In this document: positions 755 to 59,600 of the stretch, piece by piece
Numbering within the stretch: position 1 is the stretch's first letter
Layout of the letters: each line of letters opens with the position of its first letter
From: Candidatus Latescibacterota bacterium
Lineage (GTDB): Bacteria; Latescibacterota; CBDEFO01
Direction: 5' to 3'
NCBI GenBank assembly: GCA_965237525.1
Contig: CBDEFO010000007.1
Coordinates: 256,001-320,000, forward strand
DNA length: 64,000 nt
Notes under the pieces: generated by a model
What the model saw: the letters and a program-made list of their open reading frames with translations, nothing else
Databases searched by the model: none
What the model was told of the DNA's origin: nothing
Program-made: the position numbers and the translations under genes

Positions 755-1921
755 TTGGAATTGGTGTTCCTTCTTTCCCTTGCGACTGTGGTCTACGTAT
801 ATCTTGGTTATCCTTTCGCACTGATGGTTATAAGAGCCGTAAAGGGTAAGAAGCCCCCGATTGAATCTATCGGGGGTAAAAAGGATGATGTTACTCCTTC
901 GGTATCTTTAGTTATCTCTGCTCATAATGAACAAGAGGTTATTGGGAAGAAGATTGAAAATAGCCTCCTTTTAGACTATCCACGGGATAAATTGGAAATT
1001 GTGGTGGCTTCCGACTGTTCCTCCGATAGAACGAATGAGATCGTCCGAAGCTATTCGGATCAAGGGGTAATTCTGAATATTATTCCTCAAAGAGGAGGCA
1101 AAACCGTAGCCCAAAACGAGACTGTTCCTCTAACCGAGGGCGAAATCGTTATCTTCTCAGACGCCGATTCGATCTTTGAGAGGGATGTCATCTTAAGGCT
1201 CGCAACAAATTTCAGCGATCCAGAGGTAGGTGCCGTCTCGGGTCGGCTCCTCTATACCAATTCAAACGAATCGGCCATGAGTTCAGGAGAGAGCCTCTAC
1301 TGGAAGTACGAAAATTTGCTGAGGCGGTTGGAAAGCGATATAGGATCGTGCATCATGGCAAATGCAGCGATCTTTGCTATACGGCGTGAGTTTTACAGGC
1401 ATCTCGACCCGGGGTTTTCAGAGGATTTTGTGCTCCCTCTTTGGATATCTGCCGATGGCGCAAAGTCCCTGTTCGATCCGGAGGCTGTGTGTTTTGAAAG
1501 GACGGCTGTTACCCCAAAGGATGAGTCGTCCATGAGGATCAGGACCGCTCATGGGGATTCCTACGGTCTTTTCAAGTTGAAGTGCATGTTGTCGCCATTT
1601 CGACCCCTTTTGGCTTTTCAATCTATTTCCCATAAACTCCTGCGCTGGGCTGTGGGATTCTTTCTGATCTTGGCTTTCATCTCCAACGCCTTCCTTCTTC
1701 ACTCTTTCCCTTTGCTTCTTTATAAAATTACCTTCCTTTTGCAGTCTTTATTCTACCTGGCGGCTCTTGCCGGACTGATTCTGAACAGAAAAGGCAAAAA
1801 AATGCGCCTGTTCTACCTGCCCTATTATTTCTGCGTGGTCAATACAGCTGCGGTGATAGGCTTGATGAAAAGCATTCTGGGAGTACCGTACGTGACTATA
1901 TGGGAACAGAGATTAAGGTAG
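755..1921 (+). CDS. GT2 family glycosyltransferase, membrane-anchored
   Basis: N-terminal TM, SVSLVISAHNE, VASDCSSDRT, RGGK, IFSDAD, ED motif, C-terminal TMs. Confidence 0.9.
   Translation: MELVFLLSLATVVYVYLGYPFALMVIRAVKGKKPPIESIGGKKDDVTPSVSLVISAHNEQEVIGKKIENSLLLDYPRDKLEIVVASDCSSDRTNEIVRSYSDQGVILNIIPQRGGKTVAQNETVPLTEGEIVIFSDADSIFERDVILRLATNFSDPEVGAVSGRLLYTNSNESAMSSGESLYWKYENLLRRLESDIGSCIMANAAIFAIRREFYRHLDPGFSEDFVLPLWISADGAKSLFDPEAVCFERTAVTPKDESSMRIRTAHGDSYGLFKLKCMLSPFRPLLAFQSISHKLLRWAVGFFLILAFISNAFLLHSFPLLLYKITFLLQSLFYLAALAGLILNRKGKKMRLFYLPYYFCVVNTAAVIGLMKSILGVPYVTIWEQRLR
855..875. repeat. Family A 21-bp hairpin element, in frame in the GT2 gene
   Basis: CCCCGATTGAATCTATCGGGG, read as PPIESIGG. 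Confidence 0.85.
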
Positions 1922-1930
1922 GAGCTACAA

Positions 1931-2755
1931 ATGCGTCTCAAGGATAGGGTAGCTATCGTAACGGGAGGGGGCAGAGGAATCGGCAGCAGCATCTGTCTTG
2001 CCTTTGCGAGAGAAGGGGCATTCATCGTTGTGGCCGCCCGCACGAGCGCGAAGATCCAAGGGATATCGGCTGAAATTGAGATGCTGGGAGGACAAGCTCT
2101 TGCCCTGAAGACGGACGTATCTCAGAGGGAAGATGTGGGAAATATGGTGGATCGGACGATCCGAGAATTCGGAAAAGTGGATATATTAGTAAACAACGCA
2201 GGAGTCCAAGGACCCATCGGGGCTACGGTAGACACAGATATAGACTGTTGGATTGAAACTGTAAAGATCAATCTCATCGGATCGTATCTGTGTTCCAAGG
2301 CTGTTCTACCGTATATGATAAAGCAGAAAAGAGGAAAGATAATAAATCTTTCAGGAGGTGGATCCGTATCTCCAAGACCATTTTTTTCGGCATACGGCGT
2401 GTCCAAAGCTGCGCTCGTGCGATTTACTGAGACCTTGGCGGAAGAAGTTAAAGAGTTTAACATAGGTGTAAACGCCATAGCACCGGGCGCCATAAATACC
2501 AGTATGCTCGAGGAGGTACTGGAAGCAGGAGAGTCTGCTGGAGAGAAAGCTCTTGCTCAGGCACGAAGGCAGAAGGAGAGTGGGGGTGTTGCGGTGGAAA
2601 GACCGGCGGCCTTAGCCCTATTTTTGGCTTCAGATGAGTCGAACGGCCTGACCGGCAGGTTAATAAGCAGTGTCTATGACGATTGGGAGTCTATGAATAT
2701 CGCCCAGGTTATGTCGTCCGAACTGTATACAGTGCGCAGGATCGATCGGATATGA
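1931..2755 (+). CDS. Short-chain dehydrogenase/reductase (SDR)
   Basis: TGGGRGIG, NNAG, YGVSK catalytic motif, APG. Confidence 0.92.
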   Translation: MRLKDRVAIVTGGGRGIGSSICLAFAREGAFIVVAARTSAKIQGISAEIEMLGGQALALKTDVSQREDVGNMVDRTIREFGKVDILVNNAGVQGPIGATVDTDIDCWIETVKINLIGSYLCSKAVLPYMIKQKRGKIINLSGGGSVSPRPFFSAYGVSKAALVRFTETLAEEVKEFNIGVNAIAPGAINTSMLEEVLEAGESAGEKALAQARRQKESGGVAVERPAALALFLASDESNGLTGRLISSVYDDWESMNIAQVMSSELYTVRRIDRI

Positions 2756-3756
2756 AAATAGGTTTAGTAGGCGCGGGCGCTATAGGGCGAAGAAGAGCGG
2801 AGGTGGTCGGGGAGGATGAATCCACACAGATGGAAATCGTGGCTGATGTAGACGAGGAGAGGGCAAGGGAACTGGCCCAAAGGGTACGATGCAAATGGAC
2901 GACCGATCCTGTGGAAGTCGTAAACTGCGATGACGTGGATGCGGTGATTGTATCTGCCACGCCCAAATTTCTTTCTTTAATAAGTATAGCGGCTATGGAA
3001 AATGGTAAGCATGTCCTCTGTGAAAAGCCTCTGGGGAGGAACTCGAAGGAAGTCAAAGAGATGTGGGACGCAGCCTGTACAAACGGTGTGAGGCTCAAAT
3101 CGGGCTTCAATCACCGCTATCATCCGGGAATCCTTAAGGCCAGAGAATTGTTCGAGATGGGCGTTATCGGGGAGTTGAATTTTGTCCGCTGTCGCTACGG
3201 GCACGGAGGCAGACCAGGCTACGAGAGGGAATGGAGGGCAGACCCACAGATATCCGGAGGAGGCGAGTTGATAGATCAGGGGGTGCACGCTTTAGATCTC
3301 TTCCGCTGGTTTATGGGAGAGTTTAGCCAGGTTACAGGATTTATAAGCACCAGATTCTGGGACATCAGTCCCCTGGAGGACAACGCCTTCGCTCTCCTCA
3401 AGACGGATAGAGACCAGATAGCTTCGCTCCATGCAAGTTGGACGCAGTGGAAGAATATCTTCTCGTTTGAGATCTTCGGCGAGGATGGATATGTGATAGT
3501 AGACGGTTTAGGTGGCAACTACGGTAGGGAGAAAGCGACGCTCGGTATAAGGTCAAAGTCCTCCGATCCTCCAGAAGAGGAGGTCTTCGAGCTTGAAGGG
3601 CCCGACAGATCGTTTAGCTTGGAGTGGGAGGAGTTTGTGACGGCCATAAGGGATGATCGACGGATGTTAGCTGACGGATACGACGGTTGGCAGGCTATGA
3701 GAATGGTGGACGCTGTATATGAGTCTGCAAAGAATGGGTGTGTGGTGGAATTGTAG
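2752..3756 (+). CDS. Gfo/Idh/MocA family oxidoreductase
   Basis: Start taken at ATG 2752 (ATGA overlap with the SDR stop); GAGAIG, HVLCEKP, GGGELIDQGVH. Confidence 0.9.
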   Translation: MKIGLVGAGAIGRRRAEVVGEDESTQMEIVADVDEERARELAQRVRCKWTTDPVEVVNCDDVDAVIVSATPKFLSLISIAAMENGKHVLCEKPLGRNSKEVKEMWDAACTNGVRLKSGFNHRYHPGILKARELFEMGVIGELNFVRCRYGHGGRPGYEREWRADPQISGGGELIDQGVHALDLFRWFMGEFSQVTGFISTRFWDISPLEDNAFALLKTDRDQIASLHASWTQWKNIFSFEIFGEDGYVIVDGLGGNYGREKATLGIRSKSSDPPEEEVFELEGPDRSFSLEWEEFVTAIRDDRRMLADGYDGWQAMRMVDAVYESAKNGCVVEL

Positions 3757-3932
3757 GCAATATGTGTTGGTTGGCTCTTGCCTTGAGTTGTTGGGAGGCG
3801 GCGTGTCCGCTTTGCTGGGGAGCCAGCAAAGCACGAAGTGGGCAAAGCAATATCAACTTTTGTCGTTGATTTTGCTTGGAGGTTTGCCCCCGATTAGATC
3901 GGGGGTCACAATGTCCCTGAAACACGAAAGGT

Positions 3933-7704: not shown

Positions 7705-9000
7705 ATGTGGATACTATACGATCTTATCTTTCTTCTTGTTTTGATCTTAGCCTTGCCGTATATCCTGCTGATGGCGCTTTTAGGTCGAGAGAGGATGGCA
7801 GAAAGGCTGGGGTTAAAGTTGCCAACGGATATAGATGGGTTGTCCGATAAGAAGCTTATATGGGTACACGCGGCGTCTGTGGGCGAAATATCGGCTGCAA
7901 CTGCACTTGTAAGTGAGATAAAGAAGGTTCGTCCCGAATTGTACGTTGTAGTCTCTACGACTACGACGACGGGTCTTTATAGGGCAAAAGAGATAGTGTA
8001 TGGGGGAGACCTTTTCATGGTCGCCCCTTTTGACTTTTCCCCCATAGTCAACCGCGTCGTATACAGGTTAAGGCCAATGGCTCTGGTCATTATAGAGACT
8101 GAGATATGGCCCAATTTGATAAGGGCAGCTAAAAGGAGAGGATCTCAGGTCGCTATAGTTAGCGGCAGGTTGTCCCGGAAGGGATTCTTGCGGTACAGGA
8201 TAGCCGGAGGATGGTTTTCAAAGATACTGGCTTTGATAGACCTAGTCTGCGTTCAGTCGGAAGGGGACAAGGAGAGATTCGCCGCTCTGGGCGCGGATCA
8301 AAAGAGGATCAAGCTTACGGGCAATCTGAAGATAGATAGCCTGAAAGTAACATCAGATGCGAGAGGAAAAAAGTGCATCAGGGAAGCTTTCGGGTTTTCG
8401 GAAGATGGGAAAGTGTTGATAGCTGGCAGCACGAGACGGGGCGAGGAAGATATTATAGTGCGGGTCTTTGAGAAACTTTGCCGCCGATTCGACGATCTGT
8501 CCTTGATAATTGCTCCTCGCCATCTGGATAGGTTGAAAGAGGTTGAAGAAATAGTTCAAACATACAACCTTCCTTACCTAAGGTGGGCCGACGTGGTGCG
8601 GTCACTTTGTGTTGAAGGAAGTAACTCTCATGCGAAATATAGCGTTATAATTCTAGATACAGTGGGAGAGCTTGCGTCCGTGTACCGGTTGGCGGATGTG
8701 GCATTTGTAGGAGGAAGTCTGATGCCACTTGGGGGGCATAACCCGTTAGAGCCAGCGGCTGTGGGCATTCCTACCATATTCGGGAAGTACATGGAGCAGG
8801 AGGGAGCATCTATGCTTCTTGAGAGCGGAGCAGCGCTGAAGGTAGAGGATGAAGATGAACTCCTGATAGCCTTGGAGCGTCTCTTCGAGGATGAGGAAGA
8901 GCGGGAAAGGAGAGGAAGAGCCGGGATAGATGCCATTTCAAAAGCGCAGGGCGTCGCCCAAAGGACACTGGAACTTTTAGTGGCAAGAGGGATAATATAA
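7705..9000 (+). CDS. waaA: 3-deoxy-D-manno-octulosonic acid (Kdo) transferase
   Basis: IWVHAASVGE, IIETEIWPNL, GNLK, AGST, APRH, FVGGSL..GGHNPLEPA. Confidence 0.95.
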   Translation: MWILYDLIFLLVLILALPYILLMALLGRERMAERLGLKLPTDIDGLSDKKLIWVHAASVGEISAATALVSEIKKVRPELYVVVSTTTTTGLYRAKEIVYGGDLFMVAPFDFSPIVNRVVYRLRPMALVIIETEIWPNLIRAAKRRGSQVAIVSGRLSRKGFLRYRIAGGWFSKILALIDLVCVQSEGDKERFAALGADQKRIKLTGNLKIDSLKVTSDARGKKCIREAFGFSEDGKVLIAGSTRRGEEDIIVRVFEKLCRRFDDLSLIIAPRHLDRLKEVEEIVQTYNLPYLRWADVVRSLCVEGSNSHAKYSVIILDTVGELASVYRLADVAFVGGSLMPLGGHNPLEPAAVGIPTIFGKYMEQEGASMLLESGAALKVEDEDELLIALERLFEDEEERERRGRAGIDAISKAQGVAQRTLELLVARGII

Positions 9001-9072
9001 CGTAGACACCTTACGTGTTGCGGGCTTTATCAGCAGCAACAACTGCGTTATACTAATCCCATATTGGGAGCT

Positions 9073-10650: not shown

Positions 10651-10714
10651 CTACATCACCTCGATGCTTCCGCATACCGCAAGAAGTCAAGAACTTTTTG
10701 CGGTCTCCTTTCCA

Positions 10715-10939
10715 TCAAAACTGCCTCTTAGCGTCTTCTAAAGTTGTCTTTTGTTGTTCTCTATGGACCCAGTTGGAATCAGAGTCTCGCTTCAGTTTCA
10801 AGGGATCGGAAAAGTATCTCATAACCAGTCCAATAGGGGTTGCGAAGATGAAGTAAATGAGGGTGAGTATAACTCTCGCCTGGAAATTTCCTATTTTCTC
10901 TGCGATTATCTTCCATTTTTGCCAGAGCCTTTTAAGCAT
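10715..10939 (-). CDS. Small membrane protein, SxtJ-like
   Basis: IGNFQARVILTLIYFIFATPIGL..DPL..SNW..QF pattern. Confidence 0.7.
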   Translation of the reverse strand: MLKRLWQKWKIIAEKIGNFQARVILTLIYFIFATPIGLVMRYFSDPLKLKRDSDSNWVHREQQKTTLEDAKRQF

Positions 10940-10941
10940 CT

Positions 10942-11451
10942 TTAGCCCTTCCAGTTATTTTTCCCAACCGCCAATAGTGCAGATCGAATAAGTTGGGCGA
11001 TCTCATTTCCATTCGTCAGAGGACGACGCTCCGAAACAAACCGGCTAGATCCAATGGGGTCTCCGGCATACCGCGGAAAGAACTGGAAGTGTAAGTGGTT
11101 TATCTCACCGTCGCACATTGTGTTCAAGTAGACCTTTTCCGCGCCTAAAGCCTTCTTGATGGCGTTAACAACCTTGACACACATTTGGAAGACACGACAG
11201 GCCTCGTCCGCTGACAGGAAGGACATGTCCTTACGATGTGGTTTATAGACCAAGATTGTGTGCCCCTTCATTTGAGGATAAGACTCCAACACCACCTTAA
11301 AAAGATTATCCTCGTACACAATGTGCTGATCACGAAAGACCCGACGCGTTTCTAGGTCATAGCAGACGTAACAGACGCCCTGCCGTTTCAGTTCCTCAAT
11401 TCCATGAAGCAACTGCTTACGTTCTTGCTTCCAGTCGTTGGGATTGCTCAT
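10942..11451 (-). CDS. HIT family protein
   Basis: CYVC, GHTILV, HLHFQFFPRY (third His replaced by Gln). Confidence 0.8.
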   Translation of the reverse strand: MSNPNDWKQERKQLLHGIEELKRQGVCYVCYDLETRRVFRDQHIVYEDNLFKVVLESYPQMKGHTILVYKPHRKDMSFLSADEACRVFQMCVKVVNAIKKALGAEKVYLNTMCDGEINHLHFQFFPRYAGDPIGSSRFVSERRPLTNGNEIAQLIRSALLAVGKNNWKG

Positions 11452-14176: not shown

Positions 14177-14324
14177 CCTGACTACCGATATCGAATCCTC
14201 CGTTGGTCGGCGTAAACCACAGTCTCACCAAATGACCGCGTTGCTGTTGGTACGCGCAGATTTGCATGCCGTTTCAATGATCTTCATCGCACTGAGACAG
14301 AGTATCACCGGCGAGCGGTTGAGT

Positions 14325-14369: not shown

Positions 14370-14388
14370 CATCATGCGGACGTCTCGC

Positions 14389-14763: not shown

Positions 14764-14800
14764 TGCTATTATCTCCTGTTGGAGAAAGTCAGCCCCCGAC

Positions 14801-14821
14801 CCCCAATAGATTCAATTGGGG
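14801..14821. repeat. Family A element, compensatory variant
   Basis: CCCCAATAGATTCAATTGGGG within CCGAC..GTCGG. Confidence 0.85.
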
Positions 14822-14851
14822 GTCGGTTCTCCTTCTGTCTTGAACACAGAC

Positions 14852-15847: not shown

Positions 15848-15892
15848 AATGACTCACCGTTGTTAGCCCGATTAATTCATAAACTTGGTGGA

Positions 15893-16033
15893 GTCATTGC
15901 GAGGAGCAAAGCGGTCCCCGATTGAGTCTATCGGGGAAGCAATCTCAAGGTTTTATAGTGGTCTCCTATGAGAGCCGGAGAGTATTACATCTACCACAGA
16001 ATCGAGATTGCTTCGCCTTCGGCTCGCAAGGAC
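15893..16033. repeat. Family C palindromic element (GTCATTGCGAG..AAGCAATCTC..GAGATTGCTTC..CTCGCAA(T/G)GAC)
   Basis: Related copies at 3787-3915, 12562-12620 and 49033-49100. Confidence 0.8.
15916..15936. repeat. Family A element nested in family C
   Basis: CCCCGATTGAGTCTATCGGGG. Confidence 0.85.
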
Positions 16034-16115
16034 ACCGAAGGTGGTAAAACAGCATAACTATAATATATTACAATCACTTAATTAATACACGTCCTTTTTT
16101 TGTGAATTATTCGGG

Positions 16116-17129
16116 TTAGTTCTTTCTTTTAATTAATTTCTTTAGAGAGGGGCAATCCAGCGGAACGAGGCCGTGCTTGCCACCGGCCGACCAGGTGACC
16201 TCACCCACATATACGCTGCCTTGCGAATCGACCCAAATGTCGTGCGGCGCGTAGAAGTCACTGGGCGCACACGGATGGTCGCCGCCGCCCCAGCGGGTTT
16301 GCAGCTCGCCGTCGCGATTGAACACGCTTACCCGCCCGCCGGTGGACTTAGGGTCGGGTGTCATCCAGGGAAAGAGCCCACACCGCCGGCCGACCTCAGC
16401 GACGAACACGTTGTCCTCAGAGTCAATAAAGAGCTCGCATGGCCTCACGACTTGCGTCCACTCGCTGAGAAACTCGCCGTCAGGCGTGAATATCTGCAGC
16501 CGGTTATTCTCGCGGTCGGCCACAAAAACCCTGCCAGTGCTGTCCACACCGATTCCGTGTGGCACGTGGAACTGGCCCGGTCCGTCACCCGACTCTCCCC
16601 ATGAAAACAGGAGTTCCCCGTCGGGGGAGAACCTGTGGATGCGGGCGTTGCCGTAGCCATCGCTGACGTACATCTCACCTTCTACCGAAAGCGCCAGGTT
16701 CGTCGGGTAATTGAAAGGAGGTCCAGGCTGTTTCATCGTGCGGTAGTCAAAATTCACCACTCCCGTATCACTCGGACAGCCGCTCGTTCCGAGTGTCAGT
16801 ATCACGTCTCCGCTGAGGGTGCACTTGCGGACCGTGTGGTCGAAGTCATCGGTAAAATACAACATGTCGTCCGTCCCGATCCAGATCCCGTGTGCTCTGG
16901 CGAACAGATCTTCTCCCCAGTCGTGTAAGAACTTTCCGTCGCGATCCAAGACGATGACCGGATGCTCGCCGCGGTTGAAGACGTACACTCGATCCTGTGA
17001 GTCAGTGGCGACCCCAGCCACATCAGCGTTGCTCAAAGCCGTGGGAAGTTGTCCCCAGCCGGGAACGACCTCGTACTGAAAGTTTCCGCCACCGACGAAC
17101 GTTTCGTCAGATCTGCTACTTGTTTCCAC
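16116..17129 (-). CDS. NHL-repeat beta-propeller, peptidyl-alpha-hydroxyglycine lyase-like
   Basis: Repeated PHG/VADRENNRLQIF blades, SDGYGNARIH; GTG start. Confidence 0.85.
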   Translation of the reverse strand: METSSRSDETFVGGGNFQYEVVPGWGQLPTALSNADVAGVATDSQDRVYVFNRGEHPVIVLDRDGKFLHDWGEDLFARAHGIWIGTDDMLYFTDDFDHTVRKCTLSGDVILTLGTSGCPSDTGVVNFDYRTMKQPGPPFNYPTNLALSVEGEMYVSDGYGNARIHRFSPDGELLFSWGESGDGPGQFHVPHGIGVDSTGRVFVADRENNRLQIFTPDGEFLSEWTQVVRPCELFIDSEDNVFVAEVGRRCGLFPWMTPDPKSTGGRVSVFNRDGELQTRWGGGDHPCAPSDFYAPHDIWVDSQGSVYVGEVTWSAGGKHGLVPLDCPSLKKLIKRKN

Positions 17130-25804: not shown

Positions 25805-28024
25805 TCAGTCCTGCCTTATGACGGCTATCTTTCCCGTCTCTACTTTATCGCCGTTTTGGTCCCTTATTATGTAGAAGTAAGTACCTGATGCGATGAAGAA
25901 GCCCCGTCCGTTTGTTCCGTCCCATTTGAGGAATCTGTCGTTTCGGGAGTCTTGTTTTTCCCATACAAGTTCTCCAGATAGTGTAAATATTGACACGGTG
26001 GATCTTATGGGAAGACCGGAAAAGGTAACTCTGGCGCCTTCCGTTCGGGAGATGATAAAGGGATTGGGATATACTATCTGTTTAGGGGACATATATTGCA
26101 GGGCTTCGTAGATAGTGTTGTTATCCTCCTTTTCCTCGGCTACTTCGTTGTCAGGATCTACTTGGATAAGGAGGTTTACATCGCCGGGTCTGTTCCAAGG
26201 GACTTTGAAGACGTAATTGCCGCCACCAGAAATGGGGGCATTAACCCTTTTGGACAAAATTGTTGTGCATTCTGTGGAGTCCGGTTTGCAGATTGAGAGT
26301 TTAACAGTAAAGTCTTTCTCTACTGATGATGTGCTGATGTTGTTTACGGGGACTATGAGGGCTTCTTCTTGTTCGGAGAAGCGGACGTGACCCTTTAAGG
26401 CGCCGACTTCGCGCTCGTCGCGTCCGAAGATGGCAAGGTCAGGCATTTCATCCTGGGGTTCCTCTCCGATGGCTAACTGGGCAAGACCAGCTACGCAGAG
26501 CTTTGCTACTTTGGATACTAAAGGGAAATTGAGGCTGTCGGCGACGTCGTCTATGGTGTGAAAGTGTCTGTTGAACTGGGGAAAGTGACCCAGTGTGTCA
26601 GGCCGAAGGGCGTGTCTGTTGGGCAGGAAGTTTTCGATGCCCATAACGGCGTCGTATCCGAATCTCCAGAAGGATTCGTGGTCGCTGAAGCCCGCATTGG
26701 GATCCACGAGGGTATCTACTATCAGGTCAATGTCGTAGGTATCTTTCGCCTGAAGGAGAAGATCTATAATCCAAGCAGAGCTTCGGTTGCCCACTATCTC
26801 GACTCTGTCGAAGTGGCTATTGAATCCTAACATATCCAGATTGATGACTCCGATAATGTTTTCGTCACTTTTAGTAGCGTTGCTGACGAAGTTGAGACTC
26901 CCCCACAGTCCCAGTTCCTCTCCTGAGAAGGCTATGAATTTTATGGTCCAAGGGAACTCCAACTGCGAGAGTATCCTTGCAGCCTCGATAAGGGTGGCGA
27001 TTCCAGTGGCATTGTCGTCTGATCCCGGAGTAGGTTCTGTCCTCCATCCTGCCCAATTTACCTTGCCGGAGCCTCCAATAGCGTCGTAGTGTCCCACGAT
27101 AGCGTAGTATCCAGAGCTGGGATCCTGTCCATGTAGCGTTCCGACCACGTTGTACAGCGTATATTCTTCGTAGCCGCTGCGCACGAAGGGAATAAGCTCG
27201 ACCGATCCTTCCGGCAGGGCGTCTTCGAGCTGATCCATGATGTAGCCTGCGGCGTGGTCGCGGGTTTCGGGACGGAGCGCAAATCTCGTGCGGAGATTGG
27301 ATTTTTCGTTGTTGTATCTTCCGTTATTTTTGGTGATGTCAAAGTAGGTCAAATTGGCTACATCCTTTTCTATTCTCTCTGCACTTACCTGCTGGAGAAG
27401 GGACGCTATCCGAGGGCTGGCTTTGTGGGGAAGCGCCGTTTTGCCTGATGGAGGAGGGAACCATCCCCTAAGGCTGATGTTGTGCGGAAGGGGCTGGATA
27501 TAGTGTGCATGCAGGTAAGGTTCGAGGAGACAGAGGGCGTCCGGAGAAATTTTGAGGATCGCAGGTCCGTACGGAGTAGTGGCAACGTGCAAGGTGCGAC
27601 AAAAGCGAGATATTTCTGGAAGATGGCTTTCATCTATCAGCGCACAGTAGTACTCGTCAGGGCCCTCGCCTCGGTCGAGTATCTGGACGTCCCAGCCCTG
27701 TCCCCGATTGAATCTATCGGGGATCAAAAATTGGAGTTGATCCGGATGGACGGATACAAGGACTGCGTTCTGGGAGCAATGGCGGATGTCCAGCTTGTAG
27801 GATTCTATAGTTGCGAGGTCGTTTAGATTATCCCAGTGGATTTTGATCAGAACGGATGAGCTATCGTCGGCACATAGGCCTGAGGGTGCGAAGAGCGTCA
27901 AGAGAAATAGAGAGCAGACAATAGGCAGCAGGCACGGCAAAAAAGTAGACAGTAGACAGTAGACAGTAGAAAGGGCACTTCCTCTCCTCTGCATGCTGTA
28001 TATTGCTTGCTGTCTACACTTCAT
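25805..28024 (-). CDS. Exported M28 family peptidase with CARDB-like and FlgD/T9SS-like C-terminal domains
   Basis: GHYD, GSDDNATG, GEELGLWGS, NLDM, SDHESFW, HTIDD; VDPDNEVAEEKEDNN; YPNPF..WDGTN..SGTYFY. Start uncertain because the N-terminus is repeat-derived. Confidence 0.88.
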   Translation of the reverse strand: MKCRQQAIYSMQRRGSALSTVYCLLSTFLPCLLPIVCSLFLLTLFAPSGLCADDSSSVLIKIHWDNLNDLATIESYKLDIRHCSQNAVLVSVHPDQLQFLIPDRFNRGQGWDVQILDRGEGPDEYYCALIDESHLPEISRFCRTLHVATTPYGPAILKISPDALCLLEPYLHAHYIQPLPHNISLRGWFPPPSGKTALPHKASPRIASLLQQVSAERIEKDVANLTYFDITKNNGRYNNEKSNLRTRFALRPETRDHAAGYIMDQLEDALPEGSVELIPFVRSGYEEYTLYNVVGTLHGQDPSSGYYAIVGHYDAIGGSGKVNWAGWRTEPTPGSDDNATGIATLIEAARILSQLEFPWTIKFIAFSGEELGLWGSLNFVSNATKSDENIIGVINLDMLGFNSHFDRVEIVGNRSSAWIIDLLLQAKDTYDIDLIVDTLVDPNAGFSDHESFWRFGYDAVMGIENFLPNRHALRPDTLGHFPQFNRHFHTIDDVADSLNFPLVSKVAKLCVAGLAQLAIGEEPQDEMPDLAIFGRDEREVGALKGHVRFSEQEEALIVPVNNISTSSVEKDFTVKLSICKPDSTECTTILSKRVNAPISGGGNYVFKVPWNRPGDVNLLIQVDPDNEVAEEKEDNNTIYEALQYMSPKQIVYPNPFIISRTEGARVTFSGLPIRSTVSIFTLSGELVWEKQDSRNDRFLKWDGTNGRGFFIASGTYFYIIRDQNGDKVETGKIAVIRQD
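27702..27722. repeat. Family A element, in frame in the M28 peptidase gene
   Basis: CCCCGATTGAATCTATCGGGG, read on - as PDRFNRG. Confidence 0.85.
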
Positions 28025-28523: not shown

Positions 28524-28598
28524 CTTGAGAATTCTCCACATATAGCGGATGGGCTTTCAGGTCGCAGTGGACACTCCGCTTTTATTGATATATTCTAA

Positions 28599-32418: not shown

Positions 32419-32542
32419 ATTTCAGTTAACTTGCTTATATCCGAACTATGTCACATATCTTTCCATTTTCCTGTGCTATCCGAAGTTTGGACCTACATTA
32501 CTCTGGGTGAACTCCAGGACATCCACCTTTTCGGTTTTCAGT

Positions 32543-32563
32543 CCCCGGTTGATGCTATCGGGG
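32543..32563. repeat. Family A element, intergenic
   Basis: CCCCGGTTGATGCTATCGGGG. Confidence 0.75.
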
Positions 32564-32606
32564 ATTCATCTTTTGTCGATAGATTATCGTAAATCGCACT
32601 GTTCCC

Positions 32607-42907: not shown

Positions 42908-44017
42908 ATGGTAAAGACCTTAGAGTGGATCGGCGATGCCTTGAGGCTGATAGATCAGACGAGGCTCCCAAACGAAGTGGTATATATAGATTGCAGGGAT
43001 GTGGAGACAGTGGCAAGGGCAATTGAGGTCCTCTCTGTAAGAGGTGCGCCTGCAATAGGCGTGGCTGCGGCCTACGGCACAGTGATAGGGGCGATCGAAG
43101 CACAGAGGGAGAGCGGCGGCGTTGAGAGGATAAAGATGGCAATTGAGCGTCTGGAAAAGACAAGGCCCACGGCCCGGAATCTCTTCTGGGCCTTGGAGAG
43201 GATGAAAAATGTGTTGAAAAGGGTCGAGCAGGAGGACGTGCGGACAGTCAGAGACGCTCTTTTGAATGAGGCCAATTCTATCTATATCGAGGATAGGGAA
43301 ATCTGCAGGAAGATCGGAGAAAACGGCTCCAGACTCTTAAAGGATAATAATTCAGTTTTGACTCACTGCAACGCTGGAGCTCTGGCTACTGCAGGTGCTG
43401 GGACTGCTCTTTCTGTGATATACACGGCCGTAGAGCAGGGCAAGACAATCCGGGTCTTTGCAGATGAGACGAGACCTCTCCTGCAGGGAGCAAGGCTGAC
43501 GGCGTGGGAATTGATGGAAAGTGGCGTGGACGTGACGCTCATATGTGACAGCATGGTAGGATCCGTGATGAAGAGCAAAATGGTGGACTGTGTGGTCGTG
43601 GGGGCAGATAGGATAGCTTCAAACGGGGACGTGGCGAACAAGATAGGTACTTATTCTGTGGCGGTGCTGGCCAAAGAACACGGCATACCGTTTTACGTGG
43701 CGGCCCCCCTTTCCACGCTGGACATGGATATAGAGTGCGGGGATCAGATCCCTATCGAAGAGAGAAAACCGCAGGAGGTGACGGAGGGCTTCGGAAAGAG
43801 GACAGCTCCTTTTGACGTCAAGGTCTACAGCCCGGCTTTCGATGTGACTCCGAATTCTTATGTGTCGGCTATCATCTCTGAGAAGGGGATCGCAAGGGGA
43901 AATTACAATGTGGTGTTAAGGAACTGGGCAAAAACAGAAGACAGTAGGCCTCGACCCCCAATAGATTCAATTGGGAGTTCAATCGGTGGTAGACAGGGCG
44001 CCTCACCCGCTGTATGA
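42908..44017 (+). CDS. mtnA: S-methyl-5-thioribose-1-phosphate isomerase with repeat-derived C-terminal tail
   Basis: DQTRLP, VRGAPAIG, RPTA, THCNAGALAT, ETRP..QGARLTAWEL, GADRI..ANKIGTY, PAFDVTP. Confidence 0.95.
   Translation: MVKTLEWIGDALRLIDQTRLPNEVVYIDCRDVETVARAIEVLSVRGAPAIGVAAAYGTVIGAIEAQRESGGVERIKMAIERLEKTRPTARNLFWALERMKNVLKRVEQEDVRTVRDALLNEANSIYIEDREICRKIGENGSRLLKDNNSVLTHCNAGALATAGAGTALSVIYTAVEQGKTIRVFADETRPLLQGARLTAWELMESGVDVTLICDSMVGSVMKSKMVDCVVVGADRIASNGDVANKIGTYSVAVLAKEHGIPFYVAAPLSTLDMDIECGDQIPIEERKPQEVTEGFGKRTAPFDVKVYSPAFDVTPNSYVSAIISEKGIARGNYNVVLRNWAKTEDSRPRPPIDSIGSSIGGRQGASPAV
43956..43976. repeat. Family A element in the mtnA tail
   Basis: CCCCAATAGATTCAATTGGGA, read as PPIDSIG. 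Confidence 0.8.
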
Positions 44018-44254: not shown

Positions 44255-45178
44255 ATGAGATCGTATTATAGATTTTTCGTTTTGCTAGGGGTTCTGGCTT
44301 CTTTTGTGCTGCCTTATCAGTCGGCGTACGGTCAAGATGGCGCTATAGCGCATAGCTCCTATGCTATAGATGCTATTGTAGATACGAGCATTACGACCAC
44401 CGCGTCCCCGATTGAACCTATCGGGGATGGAGCAAGAAGGATAAAAAACGGCGCGTTCGAAGTGGGAGAGAAGCTGGTCTATTCGATACAGTTCGGGCTT
44501 ATTCAGGCCGGAAAATCGGTGGTGGAGATTGCAGGGATAGAAGTGGTGAACGGGAGAAGGTGTTATCGTGTGGTCTCTACTACAGAGTCTAACAAGGCTT
44601 TTTCAGTGTTCTACAGAGTCAGAGATAGGGTTGAGTCGTTTATAGACGTGGAGGGGATATATCCCTGGAAGTTTGAGAAGCATTTGAGGGAGGGAACATA
44701 TAGGGCTGACAGGTCGGTTATCTACGACCAGATAAATCACTTGGCAATCACAAATGGAGATACGATCTCGGTGCCTCCGTACGTTCAGGACGGACTTTCA
44801 GCGTTCTATTATATAAGGACCCAAGAGCTTGAAGTAGGACAGACCCTTTTGGTGGACAATCATGATAATGCGAAGGTCTATCCTCTGAAGGTAAAGGTGC
44901 TGAGGAGAGATGTGATAAAGACTAAGTTAGGAAAGTTGGCTTGTCTGGTGATAGAACCTATGCTGAAGTCGGGGGCGCTCTTTAAGCACCAGGGAAGGCT
45001 GACTGTGTGGCTGACGGACGATGACAGAAAGATTCCGGTCCGTATGAAGAGCAAGATAGTGATAGGACACATTGACGTTAGGCTTGTGGAATATAGCATC
45101 AATGGGGAAAACAGAGAGAATGTCGAAATACAGGCAGACAGATCTTGGGAAAGTAAGGATGCACCCGTTCGGGAATAG
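44255..45178 (+). CDS. DUF3108-like exported protein
   Basis: Signal peptide, GEKLVY, FYRVRD, QDGLSAFYYIR, VWLTDD..IPV. Confidence 0.75.
   Translation: MRSYYRFFVLLGVLASFVLPYQSAYGQDGAIAHSSYAIDAIVDTSITTTASPIEPIGDGARRIKNGAFEVGEKLVYSIQFGLIQAGKSVVEIAGIEVVNGRRCYRVVSTTESNKAFSVFYRVRDRVESFIDVEGIYPWKFEKHLREGTYRADRSVIYDQINHLAITNGDTISVPPYVQDGLSAFYYIRTQELEVGQTLLVDNHDNAKVYPLKVKVLRRDVIKTKLGKLACLVIEPMLKSGALFKHQGRLTVWLTDDDRKIPVRMKSKIVIGHIDVRLVEYSINGENRENVEIQADRSWESKDAPVRE
44406..44426. repeat. Family A element, in frame in the DUF3108-like gene
   Basis: CCCCGATTGAACCTATCGGGG, read as SPIEPIGD. Confidence 0.85.
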
Positions 45179-51509: not shown

Positions 51510-51524
51510 CTGCTGTCTACTTGT

Positions 51525-52784
51525 TTGGTGGAGATTAAGATGTTAAATGGTGAAGTCTTCAAAAAGAATATTGATTTTGTCCTTTTGGGAGCAGCTCTGC
51601 TTATAGTTGTAGTAGGGATAGTGGCTATCTACAGCGCCACGCATAATGAGGATAATGATCTTAAGGGCATATATAAAAAGCAGATTCTATGGGCGGTTCT
51701 GGGGTTGGGAGCGATGGCTTTCTCTGTAGCCATTCCGAACAAATTTTTCTACGCTTTTGCCTACGTGATATTCGGAATATCGGTGATCTTGCTGATCCTT
51801 TTATTTCTTTGGGGGGCAAGTGTGGCAAATGCCACCAGATGGTTCAGCCTTGGACCTCTGAAGTTCCAGCCTTCGGAGCTTGCCAAGATAGGCTTGGTTA
51901 TAGCGCTGGCCAGATTTTTGTCTTTGAAGGATTGGAGTCTGGAAAAACCGAGTCGTCTTATAGTTCCGCTCGTTATGACTTTGATTCCCATGGCCTTGAT
52001 AGCTAAGCAGCCTGATTTAGGAACGGCTTTGGTCTTTGGCGCGATTTTCTTTTCTATGCTCTACTGGGCCGGTGCAAGGTTCATCTATCTCTTTGCGATA
52101 CTTTCTCCTCTTTTGAGCTGTACGTTCGCACTATACGGCGAAGAGATCGGATCGGCGCTGTGGTGGGGGCTTTTCTTCGTTGTCTTGATAGGGGCTATAT
52201 GGTTTTGGAGGCCGCGACCGTGGATTACAGCGTTATTGCTTATGCTGAATGTGGGTGTAGGGGCAGCGACTCCTTATATATGGGAGCGCCTGCATGATTA
52301 TCAGCGTCAAAGGATACTGGCGTTTATAAACCCTGCGATGGATCCTCTGGGCGCGCGCTATCAGGTGTCTCAGTCAAAAGTGGCGATAGGTTCTGGAGGA
52401 ATGTGGGGGAAAGGCTTTTTGAATGGGACTCAGACAAACTTTGGCTTTTTACCGCTCGGTCACACGGACTCTATCTTCTCTGTCATAGGGGAAGAGCACG
52501 GATTCTTAGGCTCTATTGTCCTGCTGGCTCTGCTGTATCTTATTGTATGGCGGGCGATAAAGATCGCTTCTTCTGTCAAGAACAAGTTCTCCGGTCTTCT
52601 GGCAATAGGGCTGGCCTCGATATTGGTCTTTCACGTGTTTGTGAACGTGGGGATGACTTTGGATTTAATGCCCGTGACGGGTCTTCCATTGCCCTTTTTG
52701 AGTTATGGGGGGTCTTCGCTCTTAACAAACATGATTTTAGTGGGATTATTGCTTAACGTAAGCGTGCGAAGGCACGAATATTAA
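51525..52784 (+). CDS. rodA: Rod shape-determining protein RodA
   Basis: FQPSE, QPDLGT, AIGSGG..GKG, HTD, PVTGLPLPFLSYGGSS; start may be 51540. Confidence 0.95.
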   Translation: MVEIKMLNGEVFKKNIDFVLLGAALLIVVVGIVAIYSATHNEDNDLKGIYKKQILWAVLGLGAMAFSVAIPNKFFYAFAYVIFGISVILLILLFLWGASVANATRWFSLGPLKFQPSELAKIGLVIALARFLSLKDWSLEKPSRLIVPLVMTLIPMALIAKQPDLGTALVFGAIFFSMLYWAGARFIYLFAILSPLLSCTFALYGEEIGSALWWGLFFVVLIGAIWFWRPRPWITALLLMLNVGVGAATPYIWERLHDYQRQRILAFINPAMDPLGARYQVSQSKVAIGSGGMWGKGFLNGTQTNFGFLPLGHTDSIFSVIGEEHGFLGSIVLLALLYLIVWRAIKIASSVKNKFSGLLAIGLASILVFHVFVNVGMTLDLMPVTGLPLPFLSYGGSSLLTNMILVGLLLNVSVRRHEY

Positions 52785-52800: not shown

Positions 52801-52838
52801 CCCCGATTGTCCCCGTTAGATTCAATCGGGGTTCGGGG
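52801..52838. repeat. Family A element nested in another family A copy
   Basis: CCCCGATTGT[CCCCGTTAGATTCAATCGGGG]TTCGGGG. Confidence 0.8.
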
Positions 52839-53723: not shown

Positions 53724-53789
53724 AGCGGTAGTACGGCGGAATCGTCAGAGATTTTAACTATACTACGACTCTTAAAAAGGGAGGGGATT

Positions 53790-54767
53790 ATGTCGGATAC
53801 GCCGCTTGTTAGGGTAGGTGTACTTACCAGCCAAAGATTTGTCCACATCAGTGGAATATGGGGACCTATTATTTATCCCTATGGCGAGGCAGAATTCAAG
53901 GGGGTCAAAACTCGAATGACGGGGATGGTAATGACTCATGTGTGGGATATGGACAGAGAAGGATCACAGGAGTTTGCCAGAATCTACGGAGGTATGGAGG
54001 TAGTAGATAATTACTACGATATGGTGGGTAAGGTAGATGGCATCATCCTTTCTGATTTCGACTCGTGCATCCACTTCAAGGAGTTGACGAAGCCTTATCT
54101 TGAGGCTGGTGTTCCCATTTTCATCAATCGGCCTTTTGCCATGAACCTTGAAGATGCTCGGTATATGATAGATCTTGCCAAAGAGCACAACACTCCGATT
54201 ATGACCGGATCGTCGTTTGAGTACGCCCCTGAGGTTGAGTATATCAGAAGAACAGTGAAGGAGATAGAGCCGATCAGGGGGTATACAGCCGCCAACTCTA
54301 TGTCGGATTATCCATCCCACGGGAGTCACGGCCCGCTCTTTGTCTACTCCTGTATTGGAGGTGGTATAAAGAGCGTGTCCTATCAGACTCCCGATTGGAG
54401 GACTTACAACGGGATAATCGTTATCGAGTATGAGGGTAGAGATGGAGGCAAGCCGTTCTACGGATGTATACAGGAGATATCTGGCACGTGGGGATGGATA
54501 AGAGTCTTTGGAGAGAGGACATTTGAACAGTTTATAGGGAGCGATCTATCCTTCTGGGTGCCCATAGTTCTGGAGATGCAGAGCATGTTTGAGACGAGAG
54601 AGATGCCCGAATCTTATGACGCTATCTATGAGAAGACGCAGCTCTTTCTTGCGGGCTTCAAGTCTCATGTTGAGTGTGGTGGTGCGCCTGTTGCTCTGTC
54701 AGAGATAGGGGATTGGACGGCCCCTCTTGTGAATCCAGATCCGTATCCGGATGGGTACTTCACATAG
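53790..54767 (+). CDS. Gfo/Idh/MocA-like oxidoreductase, copy 1
   Basis: THVWD, VDGII, PYLEAGVPIFINRPFA, GSS; Rossmann-like N-terminal half. Confidence 0.7.
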   Translation: MSDTPLVRVGVLTSQRFVHISGIWGPIIYPYGEAEFKGVKTRMTGMVMTHVWDMDREGSQEFARIYGGMEVVDNYYDMVGKVDGIILSDFDSCIHFKELTKPYLEAGVPIFINRPFAMNLEDARYMIDLAKEHNTPIMTGSSFEYAPEVEYIRRTVKEIEPIRGYTAANSMSDYPSHGSHGPLFVYSCIGGGIKSVSYQTPDWRTYNGIIVIEYEGRDGGKPFYGCIQEISGTWGWIRVFGERTFEQFIGSDLSFWVPIVLEMQSMFETREMPESYDAIYEKTQLFLAGFKSHVECGGAPVALSEIGDWTAPLVNPDPYPDGYFT

Positions 54768-54939
54768 GTGGCCGCAGGAGGAATTGACCTGGACGGTACT
54801 CCCAACAAGTTCTGGAACAAGCTCCGAAGTGGGTCGAAGAACTTTTGGGGGGAGGGGAAATTGGGGGTCTGGTAGAAGAAATTACGTGTAGAGGTTTCCT
54901 CAAAGCCACCCGGTTTATAATCGAAAAGGAGAGGGAATT

Positions 54940-55917
54940 ATGTCTGATACGCCTCTTGTGAGGGTAGGTATACTTACCAGTCAAAGGTTTGTCCACATCA
55001 GTGGAATATGGGGACCTATAATTCAGCCGTATTGCGAGCTGGAGGGTGAAGGGTCCAAGACTCGAATGACGGGCATGGTAATGACTCATGTGTGGGATAT
55101 GGACAGAGAAGGTGCACAGGAGTTTGCCGGAATCTACGGAGGTATAGAGGTAGTAGATGAGTACTACGATATGGTGGGTAAGGTAGATGGCGTTATCCTC
55201 TCTGATTTCGATTCGTGCATCCGCTATAAGGAGTTGACGAAGCCCTATCTTGAGGCTGGTGTTCCCATTTTCATCAATCGGCCTTTTGCCATGAACCTGG
55301 AAGATGCTCGGTATATGATAGATCTTGCCAAGAAGCACAACACTCCGATTATGACCGGATCGTCGTTTGAGTATGCCCCTGAGGTCGAGTATATCAGAAG
55401 AACAGTGAAGGAGATAGAGCCGATCAGGGGGTATACAGCCGCCAACTCTATGTCGGATTATCCATCTCACGGGAGTCACGGCCCGCTCTTTGTCTACTCC
55501 TGTATTGGAGGAGATATCAAGAGTGTATCCTATCAGACTCCCGATTGGAGGACACCCAACGGGATAATCGTTATCGAGTATGAGGGTAGAGATGGAGGCA
55601 AGCCGTTCTACGGATGTATACAGGAGATATCTGGCACATGGGGATGGATAAGGGTCTTTGGAGAGAGGACATTTGAACAGTTTATAGGGAGCGATCTATC
55701 CTTCTGGGTGCCCATAGTTCTGGAGATGCAGAGCATGTTTGAGACGAGAGAGATGCCCGAATCTTATGACGCTATCTATGAGAAGACGCAGCTCTTTCTT
55801 GCGGGCTTCAAGTCTCATGTTGAGTGTGGTGGTGCGCCTGTTGCTCTGTCAGAGATAGGGGATTGGACAGCTCCTCTTTTGAATCCTGACCCATATCCAG
55901 ATGGATACTTCGGATAG
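54940..55917 (+). CDS. Gfo/Idh/MocA-like oxidoreductase, copy 2
   Basis: 325 aa, about 19 substitutions versus copy 1. Confidence 0.7.
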   Translation: MSDTPLVRVGILTSQRFVHISGIWGPIIQPYCELEGEGSKTRMTGMVMTHVWDMDREGAQEFAGIYGGIEVVDEYYDMVGKVDGVILSDFDSCIRYKELTKPYLEAGVPIFINRPFAMNLEDARYMIDLAKKHNTPIMTGSSFEYAPEVEYIRRTVKEIEPIRGYTAANSMSDYPSHGSHGPLFVYSCIGGDIKSVSYQTPDWRTPNGIIVIEYEGRDGGKPFYGCIQEISGTWGWIRVFGERTFEQFIGSDLSFWVPIVLEMQSMFETREMPESYDAIYEKTQLFLAGFKSHVECGGAPVALSEIGDWTAPLLNPDPYPDGYFG

Positions 55918-56089
55918 GTGGACGCAGAATGAAATGAGATGGATGGGACTCCCAAGAAGTTCAAGAATAAGCCACGAAGTGGGTCGAAGAACTTTTGGGG
56001 GGAGGGGGAATTGGGGATCTGGTAGAAGATACTACGCGTAGAGGTTTCCTCAAAGCCACCCGGTTTATAATCGAAAAGGAGAGGGAATT

Positions 56090-57067
56090 ATGTCTGATAT
56101 GCCTCTTGTCAGAGTCGGTGTACTTACCAGTCAAAGGTTTGTCCACATCAATGGAATATGGGGACCTATAATTAATCCCTACGGCGAGGCAGAATTCAAG
56201 GGGGCCAAAACTCGAATGACGGGGATGGCAATGACTCATGTGTGGGATATGGACAGAGAAGGTGCACAGGAGTTTGCCAGAATCTATGGAGGCATAGAAG
56301 TAGTAGATAATTACTACGATATGGTGGGGAAGGTAGATGGCGTCATCCTTTCTGATTTCGATTCGTGCATCCGCTTCAAGGAGTTGACGAAGCCTTATCT
56401 TGAGGCTGGTGTTCCCATTTTCATCAATCGGCCTTTTGCCATGAACCTGGAAGATGCTCGGTATATGATAGATCTTGCCAAGAAGCACAACACTCCGATT
56501 ATGACCGGATCGTCATTTGAGTATGCCCCTGAGGTCGAGTATATCAGAAGAACAGTGAAGGAGATAGAGCCGATCAGGGGGTATACAGCCGCCAACTCTA
56601 TGTCGGATTATCCATCCCACGGGAGTCACGGCCCGCTCTTTGTCTACTCCTGTATTGGAGGTGGTATAAAGAGCGTGTCCTATCAGACTCCCGATTGGCG
56701 GACTCCCAACGGGATAATCGTTATCGAGTATGAGGGTAGAGATGGAGGCAAGCCGTTCTACGGATGTATACAGGAGATATCTGGCACGTGGGGATGGATA
56801 AGAGTCTTTGGAGAGAGGACATTCGAACAGTTTTTAGGGAACGATCTACCCTTCTGGGTGCCCATAGTTCTGGAGATGCAGAGCATGTTTGAGACGAGAG
56901 AGATGCCCGAATCTTATGACGCTATCTATGAGAAGACGCAGCTCTTTCTTGCAGGCTTCAAGTCTCATGTTGAGTGTGGTGGTGCGCCTGTTGCTCTGTC
57001 AGAGATAGGGGATTGGACAGCTCCTCTTTTGAATCCCGACCCATATCCAGATGGATACTTCGGATAG
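56090..57067 (+). CDS. Gfo/Idh/MocA-like oxidoreductase, copy 3
   Basis: 325 aa, near-identical to copies 1 and 2. Confidence 0.7.
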   Translation: MSDMPLVRVGVLTSQRFVHINGIWGPIINPYGEAEFKGAKTRMTGMAMTHVWDMDREGAQEFARIYGGIEVVDNYYDMVGKVDGVILSDFDSCIRFKELTKPYLEAGVPIFINRPFAMNLEDARYMIDLAKKHNTPIMTGSSFEYAPEVEYIRRTVKEIEPIRGYTAANSMSDYPSHGSHGPLFVYSCIGGGIKSVSYQTPDWRTPNGIIVIEYEGRDGGKPFYGCIQEISGTWGWIRVFGERTFEQFLGNDLPFWVPIVLEMQSMFETREMPESYDAIYEKTQLFLAGFKSHVECGGAPVALSEIGDWTAPLLNPDPYPDGYFG

Positions 57068-58531: not shown

Positions 58532-58606
58532 TTGCAATCTTGTCGACATTGGTTGCCGCGGATACGAGGTTTTCAGCCAGATACTTATATGGACAGAGAT
58601 AGCTAA

Positions 58607-59551
58607 ATGAGATATATGGTTACGGGGGCTGCGGGATTTATAGGGTCGCATATAGCTCAAAGGTTGTTAGAGGAAGGGCACGAAGTGATGGGGATAGATT
58701 GTTTTGCGGATTATTACGCAAAGGAGGTCAAGGAGGACAGGGTCAAGACACTTGTGGATTATGATAGGATGGAGTTTATGAGGGGAGATCTGCTGGAGTT
58801 GGATTTGAGGCCTTTACTGGACGGTGTGGATGTCGTGTTTCACGAAGCTGCACAGCCGGGAGTGAGGTCTGGATGGGGCAAGGATTTTAACCTCTATGTG
58901 GATAATAACATAAATGCCACGCAGAGGTTGTTAGACGCGTTGAAGGTATGTGATGTAAAGAGGGTTGTGTACGCTTCTTCCTCCTCTGTCTATGGCGATG
59001 CTCTTCAACTTCCGACGAGCGAAGAGGCTCCTTTGATGCCTCTTTCTCCTTACGGTGTGACCAAGGTAGCAGGCGAAAAATTGTGTAATCTTTACTGGAA
59101 GAATTTCGGCGTACCTGTGGTGATTTTGAGGTATTTCACAGTGTTTGGGCCAAAGCCGCGGCCTGATATGGCTTTCTGCATCTTTGTCAGAGCGATTTTA
59201 GAGGGAAAGACTTTGAGGGTAAACGGAGATGGGGAGCAGTCGAGAGGGTTTACATATGTGTCAGATGTGGTGGACGCCAATATACGCGCCTCCGAGGCTG
59301 ATTGTACAGGGGAGGTCTTCAATATCGGGGGTGGTGACAGTATCATTTTAAAGAAGATGATAGAGGTTTTAATGGAGGTAATAGGAAAGAGGACAGACGT
59401 GGAGTATGAGGAGAGCCAAAGGGGTGAGGCGAGGCACACACTTGCGGACATCAGCAAGGCCAGAAGGATGCTTGGGTTTGTACCGAAAGTGGATTTTAAG
59501 GGGGGAGCGATGTTGTCTATTCCGTCGGTGAAGGAATTCTACAAGTTGTAA
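58607..59551 (+). CDS. NAD-dependent nucleotide-sugar epimerase/dehydratase
   Basis: TGAAGFIG, HEAAQPGVR, ASSSSVYG, YGVTK, RPDMA. Confidence 0.92.
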   Translation: MRYMVTGAAGFIGSHIAQRLLEEGHEVMGIDCFADYYAKEVKEDRVKTLVDYDRMEFMRGDLLELDLRPLLDGVDVVFHEAAQPGVRSGWGKDFNLYVDNNINATQRLLDALKVCDVKRVVYASSSSVYGDALQLPTSEEAPLMPLSPYGVTKVAGEKLCNLYWKNFGVPVVILRYFTVFGPKPRPDMAFCIFVRAILEGKTLRVNGDGEQSRGFTYVSDVVDANIRASEADCTGEVFNIGGGDSIILKKMIEVLMEVIGKRTDVEYEESQRGEARHTLADISKARRMLGFVPKVDFKGGAMLSIPSVKEFYKL

Positions 59552-59579
59552 ATATAACTGTCATTTATTGTTCATCAAC

Positions 59580-59600
59580 CTCCGACAGATTAAATCGGGG
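59580..59600. repeat. Family A element, degenerate
   Basis: CTCCGACAGATTAAATCGGGG. Confidence 0.65.

Follow-up and report, generated by a model that had tools for sequence, protein, structure and literature searches.

How does a hairpin barely longer than 20 nt come to lie inside intact protein-coding genes? The question is raised by a 64,000-nt stretch of DNA from Candidatus Latescibacterota bacterium (assembly GCA_965237525.1, contig CBDEFO010000007.1, positions 256,001 to 320,000), hereafter the window. A reading made from the letters of this DNA alone (the sequence-only reading) listed nine copies of a 21-nt palindromic core and took the element for a 7-codon module that adds 7-amino-acid (aa) peptides to protein linkers. 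We compared the source genome (G000; 4.58 Mb in 8 contigs) with a sister genome of the same genus (G001). The hairpin is real, mobile, and found across phyla, probably propagating by parasitizing an enzyme that acts in trans. We assign a probability of roughly 0.6 to the reading that it is a non-autonomous hairpin captured at breaks made by such an enzyme.

All nine 21-mers are present in the window with 0-3 mismatches, far beyond the mean of 0.01 matches in 100 shuffles. When the core was matched genome-wide with up to 3 mismatches, as the sequence-only reading had proposed, the source genome yielded 552 copies, including 117 exact ones, and three local shuffles yielded none; the motif is therefore not a product of chance. 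The stem covaries in the window as described, and the pattern holds genome-wide, where a G-C pair is replaced by A-T in 20 copies and by T-A in 9 (one-sided changes: GG 14, GT 11, AC 11). The base flanking the core on each side also covaries (T-A in 270 copies, C-G in 169, T-G in 41, C-A in 29), and therefore the unit is a 23-nt hairpin of the form Y-core-R, with an 8-bp stem, a 7-nt loop, and a DNA folding energy of -7 to -8 kcal/mol. The copies occupy 477 distinct flank contexts, and about 55 ride inside larger repeats. A variant exactly 4 nt shorter, with a 3-nt loop, occurs 21 times in the source genome, and loops of 4-5 nt do not occur there. This variant may reflect the same 4-nt loss that is observed at insertion junctions, or simple slippage. 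No match to Rfam (at gathering score) or to a tRNA was found in the window.

Mobility is evident from sites that are filled in one genome and empty in the other. The comparison sample comprised 120 regions of the sister genome, about 2.4 of 4.5 Mb, with 93-96% identity in the window. Of the 551 source copies considered, 288 lacked an orthologous flank pair in this sample, and repeated flanks or identity below 88% excluded another 58. The remaining 205 sites, with well-matched flanks, include 114 that are shared, 49 that are empty in the sister, and 42 that differ in length; in the reverse direction, 40 of 196 sister sites are empty in the source genome. About a quarter of comparable sites are thus empty in a genome that is approximately 95% identical. 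Net gains at the 90 distinct empty sites peak at +18 (8 sites), +19 (13), +20 (9), and +27 (7), and none of the 90 is +23 or +24. Fifty of these sites gain 15-35 bp, and the other 40 are nested doubles, passengers of a miniature inverted-repeat transposable element (MITE), or larger indels. Most events delete target bases, the typical +19 and +20 spacer insertions swapping out 3-4 of them. Among the seven +27 cases, three carry a 4-nt duplication or near-duplication and four a CAGG/CCTG-like tail.

The hairpin also inserts into itself. Thirty-two copies are nested in another copy, several of them at sites that are un-nested in the sister genome, and the self-insertion site is fixed and preferred. 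In 24 of the 32 the inner copy takes the place of exactly nucleotides 12-15 of its host copy (15 cases in one orientation, 9 in the other), which fixes the polarity of these events as insertion and not loss.

Gene calls were made with a simple caller of our own, which recognized 4,518 genes and 82% coding sequence in the source genome. All 10 insertion events in confidently scored genes preserve the reading frame (+18 in 4, +21 in 1, +27 in 5), compared with 7 of 36 intergenic events (+19 in 11, +20 in 9, +18 in 4, and scattered other gains; Fisher p = 5e-6). The first figure is partly circular for copies filled in the source genome, where the genes were called. Five of the ten, however, are filled in the sister genome, so that the gene was called from the empty allele, and these are in frame in five of five cases without circularity. 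Two of 22 source sites scored as non-genic or weak fall in a clearly longer frame in the sister (223 versus 181 aa, and 279 versus 60 aa, the latter ambiguous), and therefore frameshifting hits do occur. An insertion sequence (IS) family has kept a frameshifting +20 copy in 10 of the 14 copies of that site. Nesting inside genes has produced +18 twice, whereas nesting between genes usually yields +19 (24 of 32), with +17 and +18 also found. In-frame genic copies are a selected minority, because the commonest gains would shift the frame, and the surviving genic products are mostly +18 or +27 (6 or 9 aa). The notion of a purpose-built 7-codon module is not supported, given a 23-nt unit with these products, but a minimal, non-autonomous element that is conserved as a hairpin and inserts into genes is supported.

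Counting copies within and between genes, another check that had been proposed, gave 428 intergenic copies (78%), 97 inside called genes (18%), and 27 overlapping a gene edge; 45 are mid-gene copies in confidently scored genes. Because 78% of copies are intergenic, the hairpin behaves as a repeat similar to repetitive extragenic palindromic (REP) sequences, with a filtered genic minority. Four of the six frames of the core are indeed open, and all four are used in genes (20, 34, 25, and 18 copies). By arithmetic from the gene calls, the per-base density of copies in genes is about 20-fold below that in intergenic DNA. With 7 of 36 products in frame and four of six frames open, approximately 13% of genic hits could survive, and genes show about 5% of the intergenic density; thus either most in-frame hits are also lost or the hairpin prefers repeats. 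Within co-oriented spacers there is no strand bias (176 versus 174), there is no bias with GC skew, and spacers between convergent genes are not enriched (their 53 of 470 copies roughly match the fraction of spacer DNA that they make up), all of which argues against a role as a terminator or other signal. In four neighboring paralogues (G000:C8:739909, 742875, 745617, and 752608) the hairpin is read in frame in an N-terminal hydrophobic region.

The copies in the window, together with one element that hosts a copy, are as follows:
854..876, plus strand: 23-nt unit (C-core-G) in the GT2 gene at 755-1921, at aa 34-41, within the linker that precedes the catalytic domain; also in the sister genome.
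3887..3905, no strand assigned: short variant with a 3-nt loop, 4 nt below the core in length, intergenic.
14800..14822, minus strand: 23-nt unit with a compensatory A-T pair and arm remnants of an outer copy around it, intergenic.
15863..16118, plus strand: MITE-like host element of about 255 bp with terminal inverted repeats; 53 long copies in the source genome, 38 with the hairpin.
15915..15937, plus strand: 23-nt unit (T-core-A) located within this MITE's GTCATTGCGAG-type palindrome; net +20 relative to empty MITE copies.
27701..27723, plus strand: 23-nt unit in the minus-strand M28 peptidase gene (25805-28024), where it takes the place of 5 target bases.
32542..32564, plus strand: diverged unit with 3 mismatches, intergenic, downstream of xdhC.
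43955..43977, minus strand: unit nested in an outer copy plus heptamer arms, in the C-terminal extension of mtnA (42908-44017).
44405..44427, plus strand: unit in the variable linker from the N-terminal hydrophobic segment to the DUF3108 domain (gene 44255-45178).
52801..52838, plus strand: outer copy interrupted at 52810-52832 by a 23-nt unit on the minus strand, which replaces 6 of the outer bases.
59579..59601, minus strand: diverged unit, intergenic; the matching sister stretch is without the unit, and the alignment is ragged.

The short copy and the split outer copy are as the sequence-only reading described them, and the four copies it placed in intact genes lie in open reading frames (ORFs) with Pfam support (GT2, M28, DUF3108, and IF-2B/MtnA). 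Two half copies that it reported near 32612 and 48983 were discounted as partial matches of 9-12 nt; the sister genome matches the source at 32612, with a 3-nt difference at 48983.

The M28 gene provides the clearest empty site. A clean 21-bp deletion had been envisaged there, but the real empty allele in the sister genome is 18 bp (6 aa) shorter, with K-D corresponding to IPDRFNRG. Distant orthologues have a 6-aa gap in four of five cases and a longer gap in the fifth. The filled allele was also found in a contig from another study's sequencing run, and no empty allele was among the matches listed in contigs of four runs, whose cover is patchy. A homologue search with the N-terminus of the M28 protein returned only the protein itself. 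The GT2 protein is about 6 aa longer than two of three distant homologues, and about 7 aa longer than the third, at the hairpin linker. The mtnA hairpin is shared with the sister genome; four of five orthologues end before the extension and the fifth has a different tail, and this copy is a C-terminal extension into a composite repeat, not a linker insertion. The DUF3108 hairpin is likewise common to both genomes, in a linker that cannot be aligned. Of the four genes, M28 and GT2 present measurable insertions, with gaps of 6 aa and about 6-7 aa in place of the anticipated 7-8 aa; mtnA and DUF3108 do not.

The hairpin has hosts elsewhere in the genome as well. PheS with the hairpin is 6 aa longer than two PDB chains, ProA is 7 aa longer than one chain and 2 aa longer than another, and GlmM and MeaB are each about 7 aa longer than one distant chain. 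Further hosts are SecA (C-terminal linker), RmlD, an ABC exporter, an RND pump, and a glycosyltransferase. The retained 6- or 9-aa insertions appear to sit in loops and linkers. Distant orthologues of M28 and PheS are without the extra residues, which supports insertion.

Other repeats are frequent targets. One-third of the copies (184 of 552) lie in or beside other repeats: 32 in the hairpin itself, 99 by GTCATTGCGAG-type palindromes, and 53 by CTGTCTA-type heptamers, compared with about 2% each for the palindromes and the heptamers at random intergenic sites. Approximately 38 of the 99 palindrome cases are passengers of the 255-bp MITE-like element, which is also numerous in the sister genome, and the net +20 relative to empty MITE copies identifies the hairpin at 15915 as a passenger there. 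A 1.65-kb element with the ends of this MITE (G000:C7 near 62570, minus strand) carries a broken transposase-like gene and may be its parent. The heptamers, CTGTCTA/TAGACAG, form composite inverted elements at window positions 672-711, 17323-17362, 27907-27984, and 51445-51527, and one heptamer pair sits at the start of the M28 ORF.

The window holds further repeats and rearrangements. An IS of about 1.5 kb at approximately 28595-30120 (466-aa ORF at 28652-30052) has 135 near-full copies in the source genome and appears, by resemblance, to be IS1182-like. The region of about 9000-17400, largely lacking a syntenic match in the sister, probably represents an island or an indel. At 53774-57067, a GFO/IDH/MocA oxidoreductase gene is present as three tandem copies of 1,150 bp (87-91% identity over the part compared), and a 183-bp tandem duplication (98%) lies at 48483-48848 in the LysM region of a lytic transglycosylase gene.

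A survey of 41 genomes of the host phylum found the hairpin only in the source and sister genomes. Outside the phylum, the identical core occurs in metagenome-assembled genomes (MAGs) of Deltaproteobacteria and Thermodesulfobacteriota (12 of 64 loci from other organisms), and the core was found in 96 metagenome stretches. Four of five such genomes have 8-54 strand matches each, with none in reversed controls; the carriers outside the host genus are G041-G044. The hairpin again lies inside other repeats in these organisms, and 14 of 70 distinct sites are in frames of at least 150 aa. No exact match was found in viral contigs. Published descriptions of the sequence were not found in the literature covered, and subscription papers or the figures and supplements of PMC3733652, outside that coverage, could list it.

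How might such a short sequence move? The data establish that the hairpin inserts as a unit, with the junction sizes given above and a preferred site within itself, and that it is depleted from genes and filtered there for reading frame. Beyond this, we infer a trans-acting nuclease or transposase that would make a short staggered break, at which a single-stranded copy of the hairpin would be captured. Repair would then trim 3-5 target bases or add 3-4, and selection would likely purge frameshifting copies from needed genes, leaving the +18 and +27 products.

Several observations weigh against this reading. No candidate enzyme gene adjoins the hairpin, in keeping with the remark of the sequence-only reading that none was evident in the window. 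Y1_Tnp, the family of REP-associated tyrosine transposases (RAYTs), was not found in the source or sister genome (97-98% complete), none of 20 Y1_Tnp loci from other carriers (of 27 matches) has the hairpin, and no protein family recurs beside 116 hairpin loci of other organisms. The CAGG/CCTG-like tails of the +27 class are better explained as donor flank than by filling in a staggered cut. TCGA and ACGT, the sequences at several empty sites, match the stem base and might be footprints of deletion, and bases just beyond the unit are often altered as well, which suggests conversion. Gaps of about 7 aa in GlmM, MeaB, and one of two ProA comparisons may mean that +21 is commoner among older sites, although these gaps are rough. 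The frame and gene or spacer counts depend on the simple gene caller, and 40 of the 90 empty sites, with net gains outside 15-35 bp, were excluded from the frame test. Finally, four weakly called ORFs show gains of +15, +19, +19, and +27, the two +19 events being contrary to a frame filter.

The search for an enzyme extended to other families. The source genome has a single small GIY-YIG gene (C4:479836-480159), with no hairpin within about 4 kb and no small counterpart in the sister genome. This gene is flanked by inverted GTCATTCCCG-type palindromes, a different repeat. The four-helix-bundle family PF05635 was absent from the source genome, PF13366 was present in one of five genomes searched, and DUF559 was not in G001 or G041. 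Source genes with the hairpin on both sides are ordinary housekeeping or IS genes, as judged from their N-termini. No enzyme family tested was common to all carriers. The carrier G041, a 2.4-Mb MAG rich in small repeats, has 11 PF05635 and 10 Y1_Tnp matches.

Tentatively, the trans-acting enzyme might be taken further, to a class of 23-nt replicators that crosses phyla. A horizontally moving enzyme would read the hairpin and its asymmetric loop, open a 4-base target window (in copies of the hairpin included), and insert one hairpin at a junction of minus 4 or plus 4, dispensing with terminal inverted repeats, target-site duplications, and RAYT doublets. If this is true, few mobile DNAs would be smaller, and the element would keep supplying essential proteins with insertions of 6 and 9 residues.

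It is unlikely, though it deserves the most attention among the alternatives, that host repair or replication copies the hairpin into breaks with no dedicated enzyme. Template switching or gene conversion would use 2-4 nt of microhomology, or longer homology within repeat families. The excess of copies in or beside other repeats, the overwriting of neighboring bases, the agreement of TCGA and ACGT targets with the stem ends, and the lack of any tested enzyme family shared by all carriers all favor this route. However, unique targets without flank homology have been hit (M28, rmlD, and the glycosyltransferase), Ku was not found in any of the five genomes searched, and a single sequence, its asymmetric loop conserved, has been amplified in two phyla, which points to a protein that recognizes it.

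Spread through RNA, in which a small hairpin RNA would be reverse-transcribed and captured at breaks, is improbable. The unit would form a stable RNA hairpin (-12.2 to -14.0 kcal/mol) and RVT_1 matches occur in G001 and G042, but none was obtained in G000, G041, or G044, and there is no transcribed-strand bias. We regard as decidedly improbable the view that an old hairpin is being lost and that most empty alleles are excision footprints. Several empty alleles do equal TCGA or ACGT, nested doubles shrink by 12 nt between the two genomes, and a variant shorter by 4 nt exists; yet in self, heptamer, and GTCATTGCGAG hosts it is the host repeat, not the stem base, that the empty alleles restore, 117 copies are identical, and distant orthologues of M28 and PheS are without the peptide. 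Highly improbable, and largely refuted, is a host-selected signal (terminator, protein-binding, or DNA-uptake) or purpose-built peptide module, which the high copy number, conserved stem, and tolerance in PheS, ProA, GlmM, and SecA might have suggested, since the hairpin shows neither convergent-gene enrichment nor orientation bias, is missing from about a quarter of comparable sister sites, arrives by insertion and not substitution, and is read in all four open frames so that no single peptide is favored.

Capture at enzyme-made breaks thus remains our preferred reading, and the data bear on an open question, namely how repeats as short as single REP sequences move. About 50 clean filled and empty pairs reveal junctions that are mostly 23 minus 3-5 or 23 plus 3-4, and never 23. 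Together with the fixed self-insertion site, this spectrum offers a concrete set of substrates and products for finding the enzyme or repair route. The results also demonstrate that an appearance of being "in frame by design" can be an artefact of selection: common products frameshift, and genes, even PheS, keep the rare +18 and +27 products. Peptides such as SPIESIGD, SPIDSIGD, PDRFNRG, and PRLNLSG in proteins of such MAGs therefore mark the hairpin and not a functional motif.

Among known repeats, REPs carrying a CGTC or GTAG tag are palindromes of 20-40 bp present in hundreds of copies, mostly intergenic and with some in frame in genes; the CGTC type has stems of 8-9 bp, a loop of 4-5 nt, a CCA tail, and no dedicated transposase, according to the accessible text of the report (Di Nocera et al. 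2013, PMC3733652). Against that partial description, a 23-nt palindrome with 552 copies, 428 of them intergenic, is a REP in the broad sense. The hairpin nevertheless differs from CGTC REPs in lacking the tag (CGTC, TGTC, or CCTC adjacent to 4 of 552 copies, and to 43 with a 2-nt gap), in its 7-nt loop, and in occurring as singlets and not head-to-head dimers, and it inserts into repeats of such a kind (the GTCATTGCGAG type) instead of being one. For REPINs, which occur with RAYTs, the unit is an inverted doublet and singlets are regarded as relics, in the portion of the source available (Bertels and Rainey 2011, PMC3116915). Like a REPIN as outlined there, the hairpin is short non-autonomous DNA spread through spacers, but GTAG adjoins only 28 of 552 copies, only 23 of 74 copy pairs within 400 bp are inverted, its singlets are polymorphic, and no RAYT was found in either genome. 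Rickettsia palindromic elements (RPEs) lie in frame in unrelated housekeeping genes; RPE-1 measures about 150 bp, and three families have almost half of their copies in ORFs (Ogata et al. 2000, 2002, as reviewed in PMC10969869, available in part). To the extent of that account, the in-frame residence in protein genes (10 of 10 pairs, M28, and PheS) is similar, and the hairpin differs in its 23-nt length, its 18% of genic copies, and the lack of an Rfam match in the window.

A MITE would leave a fixed target-site duplication, whereas a 4-nt flank duplication accompanies only 25 of the 552 copies and most events delete target bases. The small dispersed repeats (SDRs) of Nostoc and its relatives are reportedly hairpins of 21-27 nt with compensatory changes, mobile and with no known enzyme. 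They are also said to occur within heptamer arrays and mini-transposons and inside other copies of themselves. Each of these features, namely size, covarying stem, self-nesting, heptamer and mini-transposon hosts, and mobility, is matched here, and the hairpin appears to work as cyanobacterial SDRs do, a likeness in features across different phyla; how SDRs move is part of the same open question. SDR5 is described, in the accessible part of one account, as inserting precisely within HIP1 (PMC4390886). By comparison with that description, our hairpin loses or gains 3-5 bases at its junctions and never yields +23. To the picture of such repeats the present analysis adds a spectrum of junctions, a measured filter for reading frame, and a fixed site of self-insertion.

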